Sequence record: NC_135731.1
Length of the DNA stretch: 64,000 bases
Strand: one strand, 5' to 3'
DNA from: a phage
This document shows, piece after piece, positions 15,093 to 22,228 of the stretch. The notes below the pieces were generated by a model. That model was not told the origin of the DNA. It was given only the letters and a program-made list of their open reading frames with translations, and did no database searches. Made by a program: the position numbers and the translations under genes. How positions within the stretch are numbered: the stretch's first letter is position 1; every line of letters begins with the position of its first letter.

Positions 15093-15174
15093 AAGTAAGT
15101 GCTCCTATGTTAGTTTTCTTTCGAATGGGTGCACTATATTGTGGAGTTAGAGTAAAGTCAACACGTTTTTGATG

Positions 15175-15203
15175 TTGACATCTGTTGAGACACTTGATAC
15201 GAT
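15175..15203 (+). promoter_or_regulatory. sigma70-type promoter (TTGACA-17 nt-TACGAT)
   Basis: Perfect -35 hexamer 15175-15180, 17-nt spacer, -10 TACGAT 15198-15203, at the head of the plus-strand operon; it overlaps the track ATG at 15169, which argues for the downstream start at 15235. Confidence 0.5.
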
Positions 15204-15234
15204 TTCTTCACTTACAGAGCACGAGAGACGACTC

Positions 15235-16212
15235 ATGAATCTTGAAAAATATTATACACCAGAAGAGTTAGAGCGCTTGCTCAAAAAATATAGACGCAAA
15301 CAGAATAACGCACGGAAACGAGATATAGAGTTCGACCTGTCATGGGAAGAATACCTCCTATTTGGTAAAAAACTTTTAGGAGATGGAGTATGCGACTATA
15401 CCCTTATACCTTTTGACATGCACACAGATGAAAACGGGCTGGGGAATCCTTTCTACCCATCTTTGGAGCGTATAGATGATGAAGGTCCTTACGCAATTGA
15501 CAATTGTTGTGTGGTAGGGTTGAGGTGCAATGCTCTGAAAGACTGTCTGGTAGATAAAAAGACTGCAATCCTGATTAAAGACAAAACTGATCGAAAAATT
15601 GTCCAGCAGATGATGCTCCACCTGAGCGAAGAGCGTATGGAGAAATTGAAAGGTGATTATACTTTTGAAGATTTCATCTTGCAATACGGGACAGAAGAAG
15701 ATAAGCTAGCACTATTTGACGAAGAGGAAGAAGATATGTCACCAATGCAGGACTTTAAAAATTTCATGGCTGATCGTGCAGCCAACAAACACATTTCAGA
15801 CATCGTAAACGAGACTGTGACAGAAGAAGTTGAAGAACAGAACTCTGAAGAGGAAAAAGAGCCTCAGGAGGTCGAAGAGGAGATTTCAGAAGAGGTTCCT
15901 GCACTGCCTGATGATGTTGAGATTGCTAAGGCTTACACTTTCTATTGTCAAACGTTCTACGATGCAGGTATGAAAGTTGATCTGTCGTTCAGCCAATTTA
16001 AGAGTTCGTATATTCGCAAATGCTGTGCTTTAACTGGTGAACGTCTTGGAGCTGGACTTAAACCCCTGTTGGTGACCGACTGGAATAAAGGTTTCACTAA
16101 AGGAAACTTTATGGTAGTATCTCCAATTATGGAGAAAGCTATGACAGACCTTATGAAGACCACTCGCATGACAATGACCGAGTTGGCAGGTATTTTCAAA
16201 CACGTTAAATAA
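15235..16212 (+). CDS. hypothetical protein with an internal tandem duplication (track start 15169 is the alternative)
   Basis: N-terminal segment (FDLSWEEY...GVCDYTLIPFD...AIDNCCVV) is echoed near the C-terminus (VDLSFSQF...CCALTGERL...LLVTDWNKG...FMVVS), separated by an acidic linker. Start chosen downstream of the promoter. Confidence 0.55.
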   Translation: MNLEKYYTPEELERLLKKYRRKQNNARKRDIEFDLSWEEYLLFGKKLLGDGVCDYTLIPFDMHTDENGLGNPFYPSLERIDDEGPYAIDNCCVVGLRCNALKDCLVDKKTAILIKDKTDRKIVQQMMLHLSEERMEKLKGDYTFEDFILQYGTEEDKLALFDEEEEDMSPMQDFKNFMADRAANKHISDIVNETVTEEVEEQNSEEEKEPQEVEEEISEEVPALPDDVEIAKAYTFYCQTFYDAGMKVDLSFSQFKSSYIRKCCALTGERLGAGLKPLLVTDWNKGFTKGNFMVVSPIMEKAMTDLMKTTRMTMTELAGIFKHVK

Positions 16213-16216
16213 TGAC

Positions 16217-16233
16217 AGGGGCCAATGGCCCCT
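16217..16233 (+). terminator. intergenic stem-loop (weak terminator or attenuator)
   Basis: AGGGGCC-AAT-GGCCCCT hairpin between the 15235-16212 gene and the next start; the T-tract is interrupted, so probably leaky. Confidence 0.35.
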
Positions 16234-16245
16234 TCTGGAGTTTTA

Positions 16246-17706
16246 ATGGATAGCAGAAGTTCAGAAATCATTGCCTCGCAGAAAGATGATGCCCTGAGAA
16301 TGTTGCAGGCTGCACGTATGTATCTTCTTGAAAAGCTGCCTTTTTATGGCACACTACTGTCAGGGTTGCAGTTCGTAGAAAACCACACATGGTGCTCCAC
16401 CATGGCAACCGACCATAAACGCATCTATTACAGTCCTGAGTTCATTATGGGATTGGCTGATGAACGCAAGGCTATTCTTAAGGCTTCTCTAACTGACGAG
16501 CAGTTTGAGATGGCTGAAGTTTTCTATTCCCCAAAATCTGTGAAAGAGGTGGCCTTCCTTCTGTCACATGAGGTGGGGCATATTATCTGTGATCACCTGG
16601 TCCGTGGTAAAAGCTTTGAGCCGGAACTGTTCAATATTGCTTGTGATCACGTTATCAACACAGGCCTTGTGGTTGACTTTAGCAAACCTCCTTGTGTTTT
16701 CTTCCCGAAGGGGAAAAGCACTATGTTCGTGAAAGGTAAGCCTTTTGGCTTCTTAGCCAGCTGCTACTGCGACATGAAGTTTCATGGATGGATTGCTGAG
16801 AACGTTTATGCAGTTCTTGATAAGCAAAGAGATCAGAATAACGGTAAAAGTAAGAGCGGTAAAGGTGAGAACTCTCAAGGTGATAAGCGACAAACCGATG
16901 ATCACATGAGTGGGAATGGTGGCACCAGTGATAATCTTGGAAAGGCTATGGGGTATGATCAGCCACAACCTGTAATCAGCCAATCTGATAAAGATCAGGC
17001 CATGCAAGACTCTGGTGACATGCTGGAAGCAGCAATGCAAGCTTCCGGAGGTCGTTGCCCTGAGGCGGTGCGTGAGTTTGTCAAGAACAGAGGTAAGCCT
17101 GTAATCAACTATATAGACATCATTAAGCAACGTATGTTGTCTAAACGAAAGGCTGAACTGACTTACAGAAAACCTGGTCGCCGATCTGGGTCTTTGACCA
17201 GCACAATGCGAAAAGTTGGGGCTATAAACAAGAACCAGCACGTTATTGTTCCTGGCCGTAATCCGGAAAACACTATAGATATTGTGGTGGCTTTAGACGT
17301 TTCTGGCTCAATCTCTCAAAGAACTTTAAAGAAAATGTTCAATGAAATCACCGGATTGTGCAATCTGTATAAAGAGTTTAAGGTTACAATGTTCTGTTGG
17401 TCAACTGAGGTTGGAGAGGTTAAAGTATACACTCGCGGCAACATAGACGAGATGATCAACTATGAGGTCCACTCAACATGGGGCACAACAGCTGCTTGCG
17501 TGTTCGAGTATCTGGATGCCAACATACCGAATGCAAAAGATGTCATCGTCCTGACCGATCTATACTTTGAGCATAACTTTGAACAAAAGGCTATTGACAA
17601 CAAGTGGAAAAAGTACGATACTCTATGGGTCCTCACTGATGGGTATAATAAAAATTATATCCCGAGCTTTGGGAAAACTGTGGAATTAATCGAGTACGCT
17701 AAGTAA
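16246..17706 (+). CDS. VWA-domain protein with N-terminal metallopeptidase-like domain (DUF2201 / CobT-like partner of MoxR ATPases)
   Basis: N-terminal TMATDHKRIYYSPEF ... LLSHEVGHIICDH (HExxH-like); C-terminal VWA/MIDAS-like VALDVSGSIS. Track start 16225 lies inside the upstream hairpin; ATG 16246 has a GGAG RBS. Confidence 0.65.
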   Translation: MDSRSSEIIASQKDDALRMLQAARMYLLEKLPFYGTLLSGLQFVENHTWCSTMATDHKRIYYSPEFIMGLADERKAILKASLTDEQFEMAEVFYSPKSVKEVAFLLSHEVGHIICDHLVRGKSFEPELFNIACDHVINTGLVVDFSKPPCVFFPKGKSTMFVKGKPFGFLASCYCDMKFHGWIAENVYAVLDKQRDQNNGKSKSGKGENSQGDKRQTDDHMSGNGGTSDNLGKAMGYDQPQPVISQSDKDQAMQDSGDMLEAAMQASGGRCPEAVREFVKNRGKPVINYIDIIKQRMLSKRKAELTYRKPGRRSGSLTSTMRKVGAINKNQHVIVPGRNPENTIDIVVALDVSGSISQRTLKKMFNEITGLCNLYKEFKVTMFCWSTEVGEVKVYTRGNIDEMINYEVHSTWGTTAACVFEYLDANIPNAKDVIVLTDLYFEHNFEQKAIDNKWKKYDTLWVLTDGYNKNYIPSFGKTVELIEYAK

Positions 17707-17721
17707 GAGAGGAGGTTATTT

Positions 17722-17985
17722 ATGGCAACAGAGTTAAAATTTGCATCAAACCGTAAAACTAAGAAGTATCTGTCCTCAGTAGCTCCAGGCACTGTGGTGA
17801 TGTTTGTTGATGAACTTGGGGATGTGAATACAGCACTTGTTGTAAAATCACATCCTGCAAACATATATGTTGGGGTATTTGACCTGTTCAGAAAGGTGTT
17901 TGTAGAACTACCTCACAGTTTGGTTGTTACAGAAATGGATGCCTGCATAGAAATTCTTGGCGAAGTTATGGTGGAGGAACAATAA
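17722..17985 (+). CDS. small paralog family protein 1 of 4 (87 aa)
   Basis: Strong RBS AGAGGAGG; shares a pattern (basic N-terminus, G-x-VV, VxxFDL, ELD..I.ILGE) with the three following ORFs. Confidence 0.65.
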   Translation: MATELKFASNRKTKKYLSSVAPGTVVMFVDELGDVNTALVVKSHPANIYVGVFDLFRKVFVELPHSLVVTEMDACIEILGEVMVEEQ

Positions 17986-18248
17986 TGGCTACTAGCATTG
18001 TATTCAATTCTAAGGTGAAGAACAAAAAGCGTGCAGACAGTTTTCCGTGTGGGACCGTGGTAAGTTGCGACGGAGACGGCATTCAAAACATAGTTATGAT
18101 TGTCAAAACAGGAGAACATTGTGTGTGGGGTTTCGATTTAGAAAATAATGAGTTGTACGATCTGCCGCCAAACATGAAAGTTACAGAGCTTGACACCAAA
18201 ATTACCATCCTTGGAGAGACAAGCTATTCAAAAGAAGGAGGAGAATAA
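17985..18248 (+). CDS. small paralog family protein 2 of 4 (87 aa)
   Basis: TAATG stop-start overlap with paralog 1; FPCGTVV ... WGFDL ... ELDTKITILGE. Confidence 0.65.
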   Translation: MATSIVFNSKVKNKKRADSFPCGTVVSCDGDGIQNIVMIVKTGEHCVWGFDLENNELYDLPPNMKVTELDTKITILGETSYSKEGGE

Positions 18249-18511
18249 TGACCACAAAAATCACTATCGCAGAACCGAAAGCCAACACTCAACCTATCGA
18301 AAAGTTTAAGTGCGGTGAGGTGGTAACATTCACACCAGATAATGAAGATGCTAAGATTTTCGCAATGGTCACAGCTGAGTGGATGTGCGACAACACCACA
18401 CAAGTGCTACGTTTCGATACCTACCTCACAGATGAGATCCGAAACGATAAGATCGTGACAGGTGTGGACACTGAAATTATTTTCTACAAGAGCTTTTTAG
18501 AGGGTTTCTGA
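18248..18511 (+). CDS. small paralog family protein 3 of 4 (87 aa)
   Basis: TAATG overlap with paralog 2; FKCGEVV ... LRFDTYL ... GVDTEIIFY. Confidence 0.6.
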   Translation: MTTKITIAEPKANTQPIEKFKCGEVVTFTPDNEDAKIFAMVTAEWMCDNTTQVLRFDTYLTDEIRNDKIVTGVDTEIIFYKSFLEGF

Positions 18512-18512
18512 T

Positions 18513-18746
18513 ATGGCAAAAATTCGTAAATTATCCAGCAATCAGGTTGTGAAAGACTTTGAATCTGGAGAGATTCTGTATGTTCGTGATGCAGATGACG
18601 AAGGTGAAGATCTTGTTATGTTGGTGGGGCACGCTGAGGACGGATGCATCCAAGCTGTTTTTCTTGAAACAGCTATGGTGCACTGGATAGAGCTGGACCT
18701 GAAAGCACGAAAACCTAAAGCAGAAATCCTGATTTACGAAGATTAA
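18513..18746 (+). CDS. small paralog family protein 4 of 4 (77 aa), most divergent
   Basis: Starts 2 nt after paralog 3; similar length and hydrophobic/acidic pattern (ESGEILYV ... ELDLKARKP..ILIYED). Confidence 0.55.
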   Translation: MAKIRKLSSNQVVKDFESGEILYVRDADDEGEDLVMLVGHAEDGCIQAVFLETAMVHWIELDLKARKPKAEILIYED

Positions 18747-18762
18747 CAAAAAGGAGATAGCC

Positions 18763-19212
18763 GTGTTGAGCAAACGTGAATGCGACAGCATTAGCCTGAA
18801 TTCTTATAAGAAACAATGGTTTGGGGTGGAAGTTTGCCGACTGCGGCTAGGCTCCTACCTGAACTTCGTTTATTATGAGAGTGACAGTCGTATCGTTTCT
18901 TATGAAGTGTTCTACACTAAGAACACCTTCGAACTGCGCCGTAAAGTGGATGGTGGGAGAACTACCCCCCAGAATAATTGGGAAACTATCCTACCTACAG
19001 ATGTTATAGGAAGTCCCCTGAATGTATCTGAAGATGAAAATCTTATGGTTCATGCTATGATGGGACTTGACAGCTTAGAGCTGGCGATCTATGATATGTC
19101 CATCGAAGCAGTTAAGCTGGACTACATCGAAAACACTTTAGAGGAAGGTATCAAGAAGTTTCTCAGTGAGAAATTAAAAGACCACTTTCATAAGGAGCTA
19201 TATCTGTTATGA
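18763..19212 (+). CDS. hypothetical protein (149 aa)
   Basis: GTG start with AAGGAGA RBS; co-directional in the early operon. Confidence 0.55.
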   Translation: MLSKRECDSISLNSYKKQWFGVEVCRLRLGSYLNFVYYESDSRIVSYEVFYTKNTFELRRKVDGGRTTPQNNWETILPTDVIGSPLNVSEDENLMVHAMMGLDSLELAIYDMSIEAVKLDYIENTLEEGIKKFLSEKLKDHFHKELYLL

Positions 19213-19454
19213 AGACCCGTAAAGAACGTAACAAAATTTTACCTGGAGCTCTCGAACACCTGATGAAGTGCAGATCTATTTGGCACTCTGCCAAGGAAGG
19301 GCAGAAGGTGGTTGTGGTTAGTGACAATACCAACCCGTTTGGAGATTATACCACCATGATGGCCCCATATGTCCGTGATGGCGTTGTAGAAGTTGTCCCT
19401 TACAACGGTTTGCATGAACGGCACTTTGAAAGCACTTTGCTAGTGGAGCTATAG
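19209..19454 (+). CDS. hypothetical protein (81 aa)
   Basis: ATGA overlap with the preceding gene. Confidence 0.5.
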   Translation: MKTRKERNKILPGALEHLMKCRSIWHSAKEGQKVVVVSDNTNPFGDYTTMMAPYVRDGVVEVVPYNGLHERHFESTLLVEL

Positions 19455-19456
19455 TC

Positions 19457-20023
19457 ATGGCGGTCAATGTGGCTTACAACACAGGAAAGCTTGACAGAGA
19501 CATTGGATGTCTTGTCCTTTCAGATACAGAAGAGTATTGGGGCTATGGGTTGCTGTCAGACCCACACCCGAGCAACCTTGTATCAACAGTGCTATACCGC
19601 TACGACCCTGTGCCAACGGTACACGACAAAGACATTCACGACCTTCGGATCAAGTGTCTGGAAGATCTGCTGAACAATGGTTGCAATGATCTGCGGGTAG
19701 CCAAAGAGAAGCTTACAAACATTCACAAAGAGGAAGTGATGAGCACCCTAAGTAAGAGATCAGTGCACAAAAAGATGATGCTGAACTTTGCAATGGGTAT
19801 CTACATGGACGGATATAAGGGTGGGGATCCGATCCTCAAACTTCGCTGCCCAACACTGTGGGAAAGGGTGGTTGACAGTAAGGACGGTACTGCCCTGCTT
19901 GAGCTACACACTGCAGGTTGGATTTGGCGGTATGTGGACGGATACCCTCTGTGGGCATGTGGACCTGGGGAATTTGTTGACAGACCTAGCGCGGTAGTGG
20001 ACTTACTATTGCAGTTTGAATAA
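19457..20023 (+). CDS. hypothetical protein (188 aa)
   Basis: Co-directional ORF; no motif recognised. Confidence 0.6.
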   Translation: MAVNVAYNTGKLDRDIGCLVLSDTEEYWGYGLLSDPHPSNLVSTVLYRYDPVPTVHDKDIHDLRIKCLEDLLNNGCNDLRVAKEKLTNIHKEEVMSTLSKRSVHKKMMLNFAMGIYMDGYKGGDPILKLRCPTLWERVVDSKDGTALLELHTAGWIWRYVDGYPLWACGPGEFVDRPSAVVDLLLQFE

Positions 20024-21516: not shown

Positions 21517-21545
21517 TTGACACCAACATCAGATCTATGTATGAT
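21517..21545 (+). promoter_or_regulatory. sigma70-type promoter (TTGACA-17 nt-TATGAT)
   Basis: Perfect -35 21517-21522, 17-nt spacer, -10 TATGAT 21540-21545; overlaps the track ATG at 21537, implying the real start is ATG 21576. Confidence 0.5.
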
Positions 21546-22191: not shown

Positions 22192-22228
22192 AAAAAGAAA
22201 GGGGCCGTTTGGCCCCTTTTTTATTTTC
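22192..22228. terminator. bidirectional rho-independent terminator between convergent operons
   Basis: GGGGCC-GTTT-GGCCCC hairpin flanked by an A-run on one side and a T-run on the other (AAAAAGAAA ... TTTTTTATTTT); sits between the plus-strand stop at 22187 and the minus-strand stop at 22235. Confidence 0.7.

Follow-up and report, generated by a model that had tools for sequence, protein, structure and literature searches.

Four small genes in an rV5-like phage

Within a stretch of phage DNA of 64,000 nucleotides (nt; record NC_135731.1, hereafter the window), four short consecutive genes on the plus strand, here called c1, c2, c3 and c4, make up what appears to be a tandem array of diverged paralogues. 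Bases 17000-19500 of the window match Escherichia phage phiWec196 (LC739542.1, genus Vequintavirus) at 100% identity, and many rV5-like phages are 97-98% identical to the window over the same bases. The four open reading frames (ORFs), of 87, 87, 87 and 77 amino acids (aa), are exactly those called in a first-pass annotation of this DNA, and all four are also annotated in GenBank record LC739542.1 as coding sequences for hypothetical proteins. Their counterparts in phage rV5 are gp014 (85 aa), gp015 (87 aa) and gp016 (77 aa), the phiWec196 array having one extra copy. The genes are listed below with their Shine-Dalgarno sites and junctions, the latter two as read from the sequence.

17711-17715, plus strand: Shine-Dalgarno site of c1, GGAGG
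17722-17985, plus strand: c1, 87 aa, isoelectric point (pI) 5.0, phrog_10698; the extra copy, without a counterpart in rV5 itself
17973-17977, plus strand: Shine-Dalgarno site of c2, GGAGG, within the 3' end of c1
17983-17987, plus strand: c1/c2 stop/start overlap, TAATG, kept in the divergent lineage L024
17985-18248, plus strand: c2, 87 aa, pI 4.9, phrog_10698; predicted to form an SH3-like beta-barrel of six strands, the N-terminal one long
18236-18241, plus strand: Shine-Dalgarno site of c3, AGGAGG
18246-18250, plus strand: c2/c3 stop/start overlap, TAATG
18248-18511, plus strand: c3, 87 aa, pI 4.5, equivalent to rV5 gp015, phrog_12861; very probably a diverged paralogue of c1/c2, extremely conserved
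18500-18504, plus strand: Shine-Dalgarno-like site of c4, GAGGG
18509-18515, plus strand: c3/c4 junction, TGAtATG, with a 1-nt spacer and no overlap; identical junction in L024
18513-18746, plus strand: c4, 77 aa, pI 4.6, equivalent to rV5 gp016, phrog_12046; probable fourth and most diverged paralogue

Translation as one long fused ORF, an alternative raised in the first-pass annotation, is excluded: neighbouring genes of the array are read in different frames, and every genome examined keeps their stop codons. Judged by sequence, the four ORFs are established as real genes of an rV5-like phage, each with its own translation start. The same annotation had described TAATG overlaps at all junctions, which holds for c1/c2 and c2/c3 and fails for c3/c4, where one nucleotide separates stop from start. 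Its further claim of translational coupling went beyond what the junctions allow, as one of them has no overlap and each gene has its own Shine-Dalgarno site; coupling of the array is possible, but not required.

The relationship between c1 and c2 is evident from a direct comparison. BLASTP aligns them with an expect value (E) of 1e-12 and 39% identity over 82 residues, the shuffle z score is 21, and both belong to phrog_10698, so that their paralogy can be regarded as certain. BLASTP returned no alignment for c2/c3, c3/c4 or c2/c4. Global and local shuffle z scores among the four proteins are 3-4.8, compared with 2.7 or less for almost every control pairing with a neighbouring gene. The signal was then followed with a c1/c2 profile that was enriched stepwise with rV5 gp014, P0002 (a 70%-identical variant of c2), P0024 (a metagenomic relative), and then d1 and d2 (the divergent-lineage orthologues of c1 and c2), the final profile holding six sequences. 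With enrichment, the score of c3 climbed from 12.1 to 16.8 to 20.2 bits and that of c4 from 5.0 to 5.8 to 8.1 bits. The final c3 score (E 2.3e-5 in a database of 916 ORFs) was matched by none of 20,000 composition-preserving shuffles and the final c4 score by 15 of 20,000; in reciprocal phmmer comparisons of c3 and c4, the score was matched by 1-3 of 5,000 shuffles. The 916 six-frame ORFs came from the window and from related loci; apart from the family itself, c3 and then c4 are the profile's two top matches among them.

Comparison with hhalign connects c3 to the c1/c2 family with a probability of 88% and E 3.3e-6 over 73 columns. For c4, hhalign gives P 0.012 and a probability of only 3.6% against the c1/c2 family, and P 0.031 and a probability of only 1.6% against c3. 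The register of the alignment is identical in MAFFT, HMMER and hhalign, and it brings four sequence elements into correspondence.

Element 1: c1/c2 F-x-x-G-T-V-V; c3 F-K-C-G-E-V-V; c4 F-E-S-G-E-I-L
Element 2: c1/c2 IVMIVK; c3 IFAMVT; c4 LVMLVG
Element 3: c1/c2 CVWGFDLE; c3 QVLRFDT; c4 CIQAVFLE
Element 4: c1/c2 TELDTKITILGE; c3 TGVDTEIIFYK; c4 KPKAEILIYE

Taken together, c3 is very probably a paralogue of c1 and c2, and c4 is probably one as well. The sequence pattern that the first-pass annotation saw in all four products is thus firm in c1 and c2, holds in c3 on the profile and hhalign evidence, and is weaker in c4, and the tandem array of diverged paralogues that it proposed stands firmly for c1-c3 and as probable for c4. 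No DNA repeats were found between the copies, and because no DNA-level repeat is left, the duplications are likely to be ancient. A 21-nt DNA match between c1 and c3 was dismissed as chance, being out of frame and out of register. In PHROGs, the four proteins are full-length members of phrog_10698, phrog_12861 and phrog_12046 (E 1e-41 to 1e-62), all of which are labelled 'unknown function'; rV5 gp014 belongs to phrog_10698 along with c1 and c2.

Constraint and distribution of the array

Between phiWec196 and rV5, c3 shows six synonymous and no non-synonymous codon differences, and c4 shows three and none. Across six genomes, the ratio of non-synonymous to synonymous differences per site (pN/pS) is 0.027 for c3, 0.10 for c4 and 0.03 for the gp014 type, with values of 0.30 for c1 and 0.18 for c2 that rest on few countable differences. 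The ratios in the array are equal to or below those of the adjoining genes, and the c1-c4 ORFs therefore encode constrained proteins; the substitution patterns indicate that all four genes are under purifying selection.

A divergent lineage, represented by three loci (L024-L026) from Logan assemblies and an 'E. coli' assembly, has the array in its four-gene form, all three junctions being of the types seen in phiWec196. Protein identities between phiWec196 and this lineage (L024) are 81% for gp012, 56% for c1, 64% for c2, 97% for c3 and 95% for c4, followed downstream by 60% for gp017, 55% for gp019, 37% for gp020 and 64% for gp021. Synonymous differences per site (pS) between the two lineages are 0.57 in c3, 0.35 in c4 and 0.63-0.92 in the other genes, and the ratio of non-synonymous to synonymous substitution rates (dN/dS) of c3 and c4 is about 0.02-0.05. 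Because they keep 97% and 95% identity despite this substantial synonymous divergence, c3 and c4 are the most constrained proteins of the operon. The first-pass view of a diversifying family consequently applies to the c1/c2 slot only, which has two forms and 56-64% identity to the divergent lineage; it does not apply to c3 and c4, which are far better conserved than their neighbours (37-81%).

A further small gene in the same region, the gp018 homologue (19209-19454, 81 aa), shows seven synonymous and no non-synonymous changes between phiWec196 and rV5. The core of its product, G-Q-K-V-V-V-V, is suggestive of a further small barrel, with no detected similarity to c1-c4, and the divergent lineage L024-L026 has no gene call at the equivalent position (L024 4224-4471).

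Among 117 Vequintavirus records, c3 and c4 are present in all at no less than 90% identity, except for two c4 copies at 80-90%, and every Vequintavirus examined has the array in either a three-gene or a four-gene form. The difference lies in the first slot, which holds c1 and c2 in 43 of the 117 records and a single gene of gp014 type in the other 74. Both forms occur among the phages of the BASEL collection: AlexBoehm, MaxBurger and JeffSchatz have the gp014 type, and CarlMeissner, EmilHeitz and others have c1 and c2. The gp014 protein is about 40% identical to c1 and to c2 and 63% identical to P0024. When the DNA of the two slot forms is aligned, the flanks are near-identical and the divergence runs from about four codons into the gene to the start codon of c3; identity of the flanks, with limits of divergence at gene boundaries, therefore points to replacement as a cassette. 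An origin of gp014 as a recent chimera of c1 and c2 through unequal crossing-over was discarded in view of its ~40% identity to both and 63% identity to P0024.

The array genes are absent from this position in Seunavirus, Mydovirus, Certrevirus and phage A73, where the homologue of gp017 comes immediately after that of gp012. Because these sister genera join the two genes straight together, the array is best read as a Vequintavirus-specific insertion and, by this comparison of gene order, as belonging to the accessory genes of the genus, outside the core of the subfamily. SSE121 gp111 and KB57_220/221, small genes that precede the gp012 homologue in Seunavirus and Mydovirus, were considered as displaced relatives and have no profile similarity to the family.

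Wider searches returned little else. A word-indexed search of 5.8 billion proteins with c2, c3 and c4 found near-identical Vequintavirus proteins only, scans of IMG/VR and metagenome contigs found Vequintavirus contigs only, and a full HMMER scan of 1.84 billion representatives added one new relative, P0024. Long repeat proteins in the HMMER scan (one inspected, RCC1-like) were rejected as spurious because their scores add up over many short repeats. From these searches, the family appears confined to Vequintavirus plus P0024 as a metagenomic singleton.

P0024 is a single copy on metagenome contig ERZ15185088 NODE_15642 (L009 1-2731), with neighbours unlike those of the array: it is flanked by a 217-aa gene and a Cys-rich 143-aa gene. 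The product of the 217-aa gene is 32-35% identical to that of a gene of other Vequintavirinae, one homologue of which is annotated as 5'(3')-deoxyribonucleotidase. An unclassified phage with a distant relationship to Vequintavirinae appears to be the source of the contig.

We would also like to note that 16 'Campylobacter phage' records (MG065635-MG065690, host given as Campylobacter jejuni) share 90% identity or more with rV5-like phages of E. coli in this region and carry c3 at 95% identity or higher. On this similarity, they look like mislabelled or contaminant Vequintavirus genomes.

Predicted fold and genomic neighbourhood

An AlphaFold2 model of c2, generated from a six-sequence alignment, has a mean predicted local distance difference test score (pLDDT) of 80.5, a predicted template-modelling score (pTM) of 0.65 and six strands at residues 2-16, 25-30, 33-42, 47-51, 56-60 and 65-76. 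The model forms a strongly bent antiparallel barrel of five strands, superposable on known SH3, Tudor or KOW domains, which places it in the generic SH3-like class. An independent BFVD model of a c1 orthologue superposes on it with a template-modelling score (TM) of 0.91 by Foldseek, and a Foldseek search of BFVD with the c2 model also finds a gp014-type protein. The body of c1 and c2 is thus predicted to be an SH3-like small beta-barrel. The c4 model, which was generated from an alignment of c4 and c3 and so kept independent of c1/c2, is weak (pLDDT 57, pTM 0.51). Its core strands (21-25, 32-41, 45-50 and 55-60) follow the order seen in c2, and its C-terminus is poorly defined. A BFVD search with this low-confidence model retrieved mainly c4's own entry, 5 of its top 50 matches being in common with the c2 list, and the BFVD model of c4 is not in the top 50 structural neighbours of c2. 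The models thus neither confirm nor refute the membership of c4, and c3 and c4 would have the fold of c1 and c2 by homology only.

All four proteins share the same physical character. Their first 20 residues are net positive, the body that follows has a net charge of -7 to -9, the whole protein is at -4 to -8 with a pI of 4.4-5.0, and no hydrophobic or transmembrane segment is present. Their composition marks c1-c4 as soluble, cytoplasmic, acidic proteins of 9-10 kDa with a basic N-terminal segment. A Pfam scan at E up to 1 gave no KOW, Tudor or other family for any of them, and sequence and profile searches of NCBIfam, PADLOC and the PDB gave sub-threshold noise only (best PDB profile E 0.02), in agreement with the first-pass statement that the family was not a recognised one.

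The array sits in the plus-strand transcription unit 'genes 11-26' proposed for rV5 (PMC3606486). The unit opens with a gene for an Srd-like protein, and the product of its second gene has DUF2201 metallopeptidase and VWA domains. The features that frame the array are listed below.

15175-15203, plus strand: sigma-70-type promoter-like site from a promoter scan, TTGACA, 17 nt, TACGAT, with a TG extension (extended -10); corresponds to the annotated rV5 promoter P11, at which the unit of genes 11-26 is predicted to begin
16225-17706, plus strand: upstream neighbour, homologue of gp012, DUF2201 putative metallopeptidase and VWA-like domains, N4 gp25-like; not a member of the family
22195-22222, bidirectional: intrinsic terminator that closes the plus-strand operon, from a terminator scan and the rV5 annotation

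Early transcription from the predicted sigma-70 promoter is plausible. The literature search found no Vequintavirus transcriptome, and Rfam had no matches in the window. The virion mass-spectrometry table of rV5 contains no tryptic peptides of gp014, gp015 or gp016, and the array genes lie outside the structural module; judged by that table, the array products are not virion components. Two further near-consensus sigma-70 promoter-like sites (TTGACA, 17 nt, TATGAT; 11 of 12 matches), at 19067-19095 within the gp017 homologue and at 21517-21545, may be internal promoters.

Several annotations of the neighbouring genes deserve comment. The gp012 homologue matches PF13203 (1.3e-27) and PF09967 (4e-11) and has homologues across Vequintavirinae, N4-like phages and jumbo phages; the label 'HNH endonuclease' that RefSeq and PHROGs give to its family has no support from these Pfam domains. 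A single ORF of 493 aa codes for it in phiWec196 and most relatives; the rV5 reference instead has gp012 and an overlapping gp013 (L002 2757-4218), a split in NC_011041 that looks like a frameshift or sequencing error. The Srd-like gene of phiWec196 is annotated from ~15172, a start that overlaps the predicted promoter, and the rV5 start lies ~100 nt further downstream (15172-15276); for these two reasons, the phiWec196 coding sequence is probably over-extended at its 5' end. The gp017 homologue (18763-19212), which adjoins the 3' side of the gp012 homologue in the sister Vequintavirinae genera examined, is labelled 'tail protein' (RefSeq, phrog_6790) though its place is in a putatively early operon and a long way from the structural module; the label looks doubtful.

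Candidate roles and comparison with known systems

On balance, we lean towards the reading that the array is an ancient set of paralogues encoding small protein-binding modules, which evolve in two regimes and are carried as an accessory of the genus. By this account, c1, c2, c3 and probably c4 descend from one ancestor of ~85 codons through ancient tandem duplication. Host RNA polymerase would transcribe the array early, using the sigma-70 promoter that precedes the Srd-like gene, and the products would act as adaptors or inhibitors that dock on host or phage proteins in the early phase. The two evolutionary regimes would correspond to a strongly constrained function of c3 and c4, fixed in the genus, and to a first slot that serves as an exchangeable cassette, of c1+c2 or gp014 type, swapped by recombination at gene boundaries. 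Several of the results weigh against this reading. The hhalign probability of c4 against the c1/c2 family is low, the c4 model is weak and its BFVD counterpart is missing from the closest structural neighbours of c2; a literature search on transcription timing, knock-downs and phenotypes of rV5 gp014-016 found nothing specific; and the strong conservation of c3 and c4 would fit a phage-internal role equally.

The paralogy itself could be narrower than proposed, with only c1 and c2 related and c3, c4 or both being unrelated ORFans alike in length, composition and position. The silence of BLASTP beyond the c1/c2 pair, the division of the genes among three PHROG families, both low hhalign values for c4 and its low-confidence model would all be expected if this were so. 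What makes it distinctly unlikely is, for c3, the full-length hhalign match and the absence of any equal score among the shuffles, and, for c4, three semi-independent tests with p of about 2e-4 to 7.5e-4. In addition, c3 and c4 lead the non-family matches among the 916 ORFs, one alignment register recurs across three programs, the charge layout is common to all four proteins, and the predicted core strand order of c4 is that of c2. A different objection concerns function. The first-pass annotation suggested an anti-defence or host-takeover family evolving by duplication; on this view, diversification would come from an arms race, with each paralogue directed against a different host defence or target, and the small, acidic, probably early and genus-limited proteins, the two-formed slot with its cassette-like replacement exactly at gene boundaries, the occurrence of P0024 in the gene context of another phage (as expected for a mobile accessory gene) and the Srd-like host-takeover gene that opens the operon are all in keeping with it. 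Nevertheless, c3 and c4 are nearly invariant over lineages with near-saturated synonymous sites, pN/pS within each allele class is 0.03-0.3, and no similarity to characterised inhibitors was found, the PADLOC null saying little here as that resource covers defence systems and not counter-defence. Vequintaviruses are, moreover, described as exceptionally sensitive to restriction-modification systems and as commonly acted on by abortive-infection systems (PMC8594841). An arms race is thus possible for the c1/c2 slot and a poor fit with the conservation of c3 and c4, and as an explanation of the whole array we consider it unlikely.

The fold offers two other readings. One is that the proteins attach to nucleic acid or the ribosome, as KOW or Tudor domains do, the barrel and its basic N-terminal arm regulating phage transcription or translation; the basic first 20 residues and the fold neighbours of c2 point this way, and the negative charge of the whole proteins and of the barrel itself, together with the empty Pfam scan, point away from it, making it very unlikely. 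The other, a speculative extension that we regard as quite improbable, is that the array encodes genus-specific SH3/KOW-like decoys, each docking on a conserved part of the host gene-expression or defence machinery (e.g., RNA polymerase, a NusG or S10 partner, or a defence sensor), c3 and c4 on invariant targets and the cassette tuned to variable host factors. If the decoy reading were true, the natural two-form polymorphism would be a ready-made experiment for finding new phage-host interfaces.

The small protein-binding modules that we favour leave current understanding unchallenged, the array being of a familiar kind, that is, tandem accessory genes of a lytic phage. Three PHROG families of 'unknown function', whose members are annotated as hypothetical proteins in over 100 genomes of rV5-like phages, could be brought together as one family of probable small-barrel paralogues, which slightly lowers the unexplained gene content of these phages. 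The rV5-like phages are widely used in O157 biocontrol and are represented in the BASEL collection. A two-form slot beside two almost invariant paralogues, with both forms already in BASEL phages, provides a cheap experimental handle.

Among structurally similar phage proteins, BFVD holds several of 70-90 aa that are predicted to be small barrels like c2 (an 87-aa protein of Kuravirus SU7, two of phage 172-1, N4 gp21 and one of LAMP); their matches to c2 have TM 0.5-0.65 at marginal E of 1e-3 to 1e-2, all are uncharacterised, and they differ from the array family in having no detectable sequence similarity to it. N4 gp21 and other small N4 proteins were tried as relatives and show no sequence relation, N4 gp21 scoring -2 bits against the family profile. 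The N4 gp21 gene (L011 3156-3380) lies three genes upstream of N4 gp24/gp25, gp25 being a homologue of the array's upstream neighbour. Matches to the c2 model also occur in phage NJ01 and in Erwinia, Proteus and Vibrio phages, some phages having two. Small barrels of this kind may be a structural class that is widespread among small phage proteins, the similarity being marginal and at the level of the fold only.

Better-known SH3-like barrels, namely Tudor domains, the KOW domains of NusG/Spt5, the C-domain of uL2, the N-domain of EF-P and the C-terminal Tudor domain of UvrD/PcrA, resemble c1 and c2 at the level of fold class only. In contrast to these, the array proteins are standalone, 77-87 aa long and strongly acidic, and possess a long additional strand at the N-terminus. 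T7 Ocr, T4 Arn and T7 Gp5.9 are small, acidic, early proteins that bind and block a host protein. In size, acidity and proposed mode of action they are like the array proteins, and they differ in having other folds, many of them mimicking DNA. Finally, where PHROGs keeps three unrelated families, our comparison links phrog_12861, and probably phrog_12046, to phrog_10698 as diverged paralogues.

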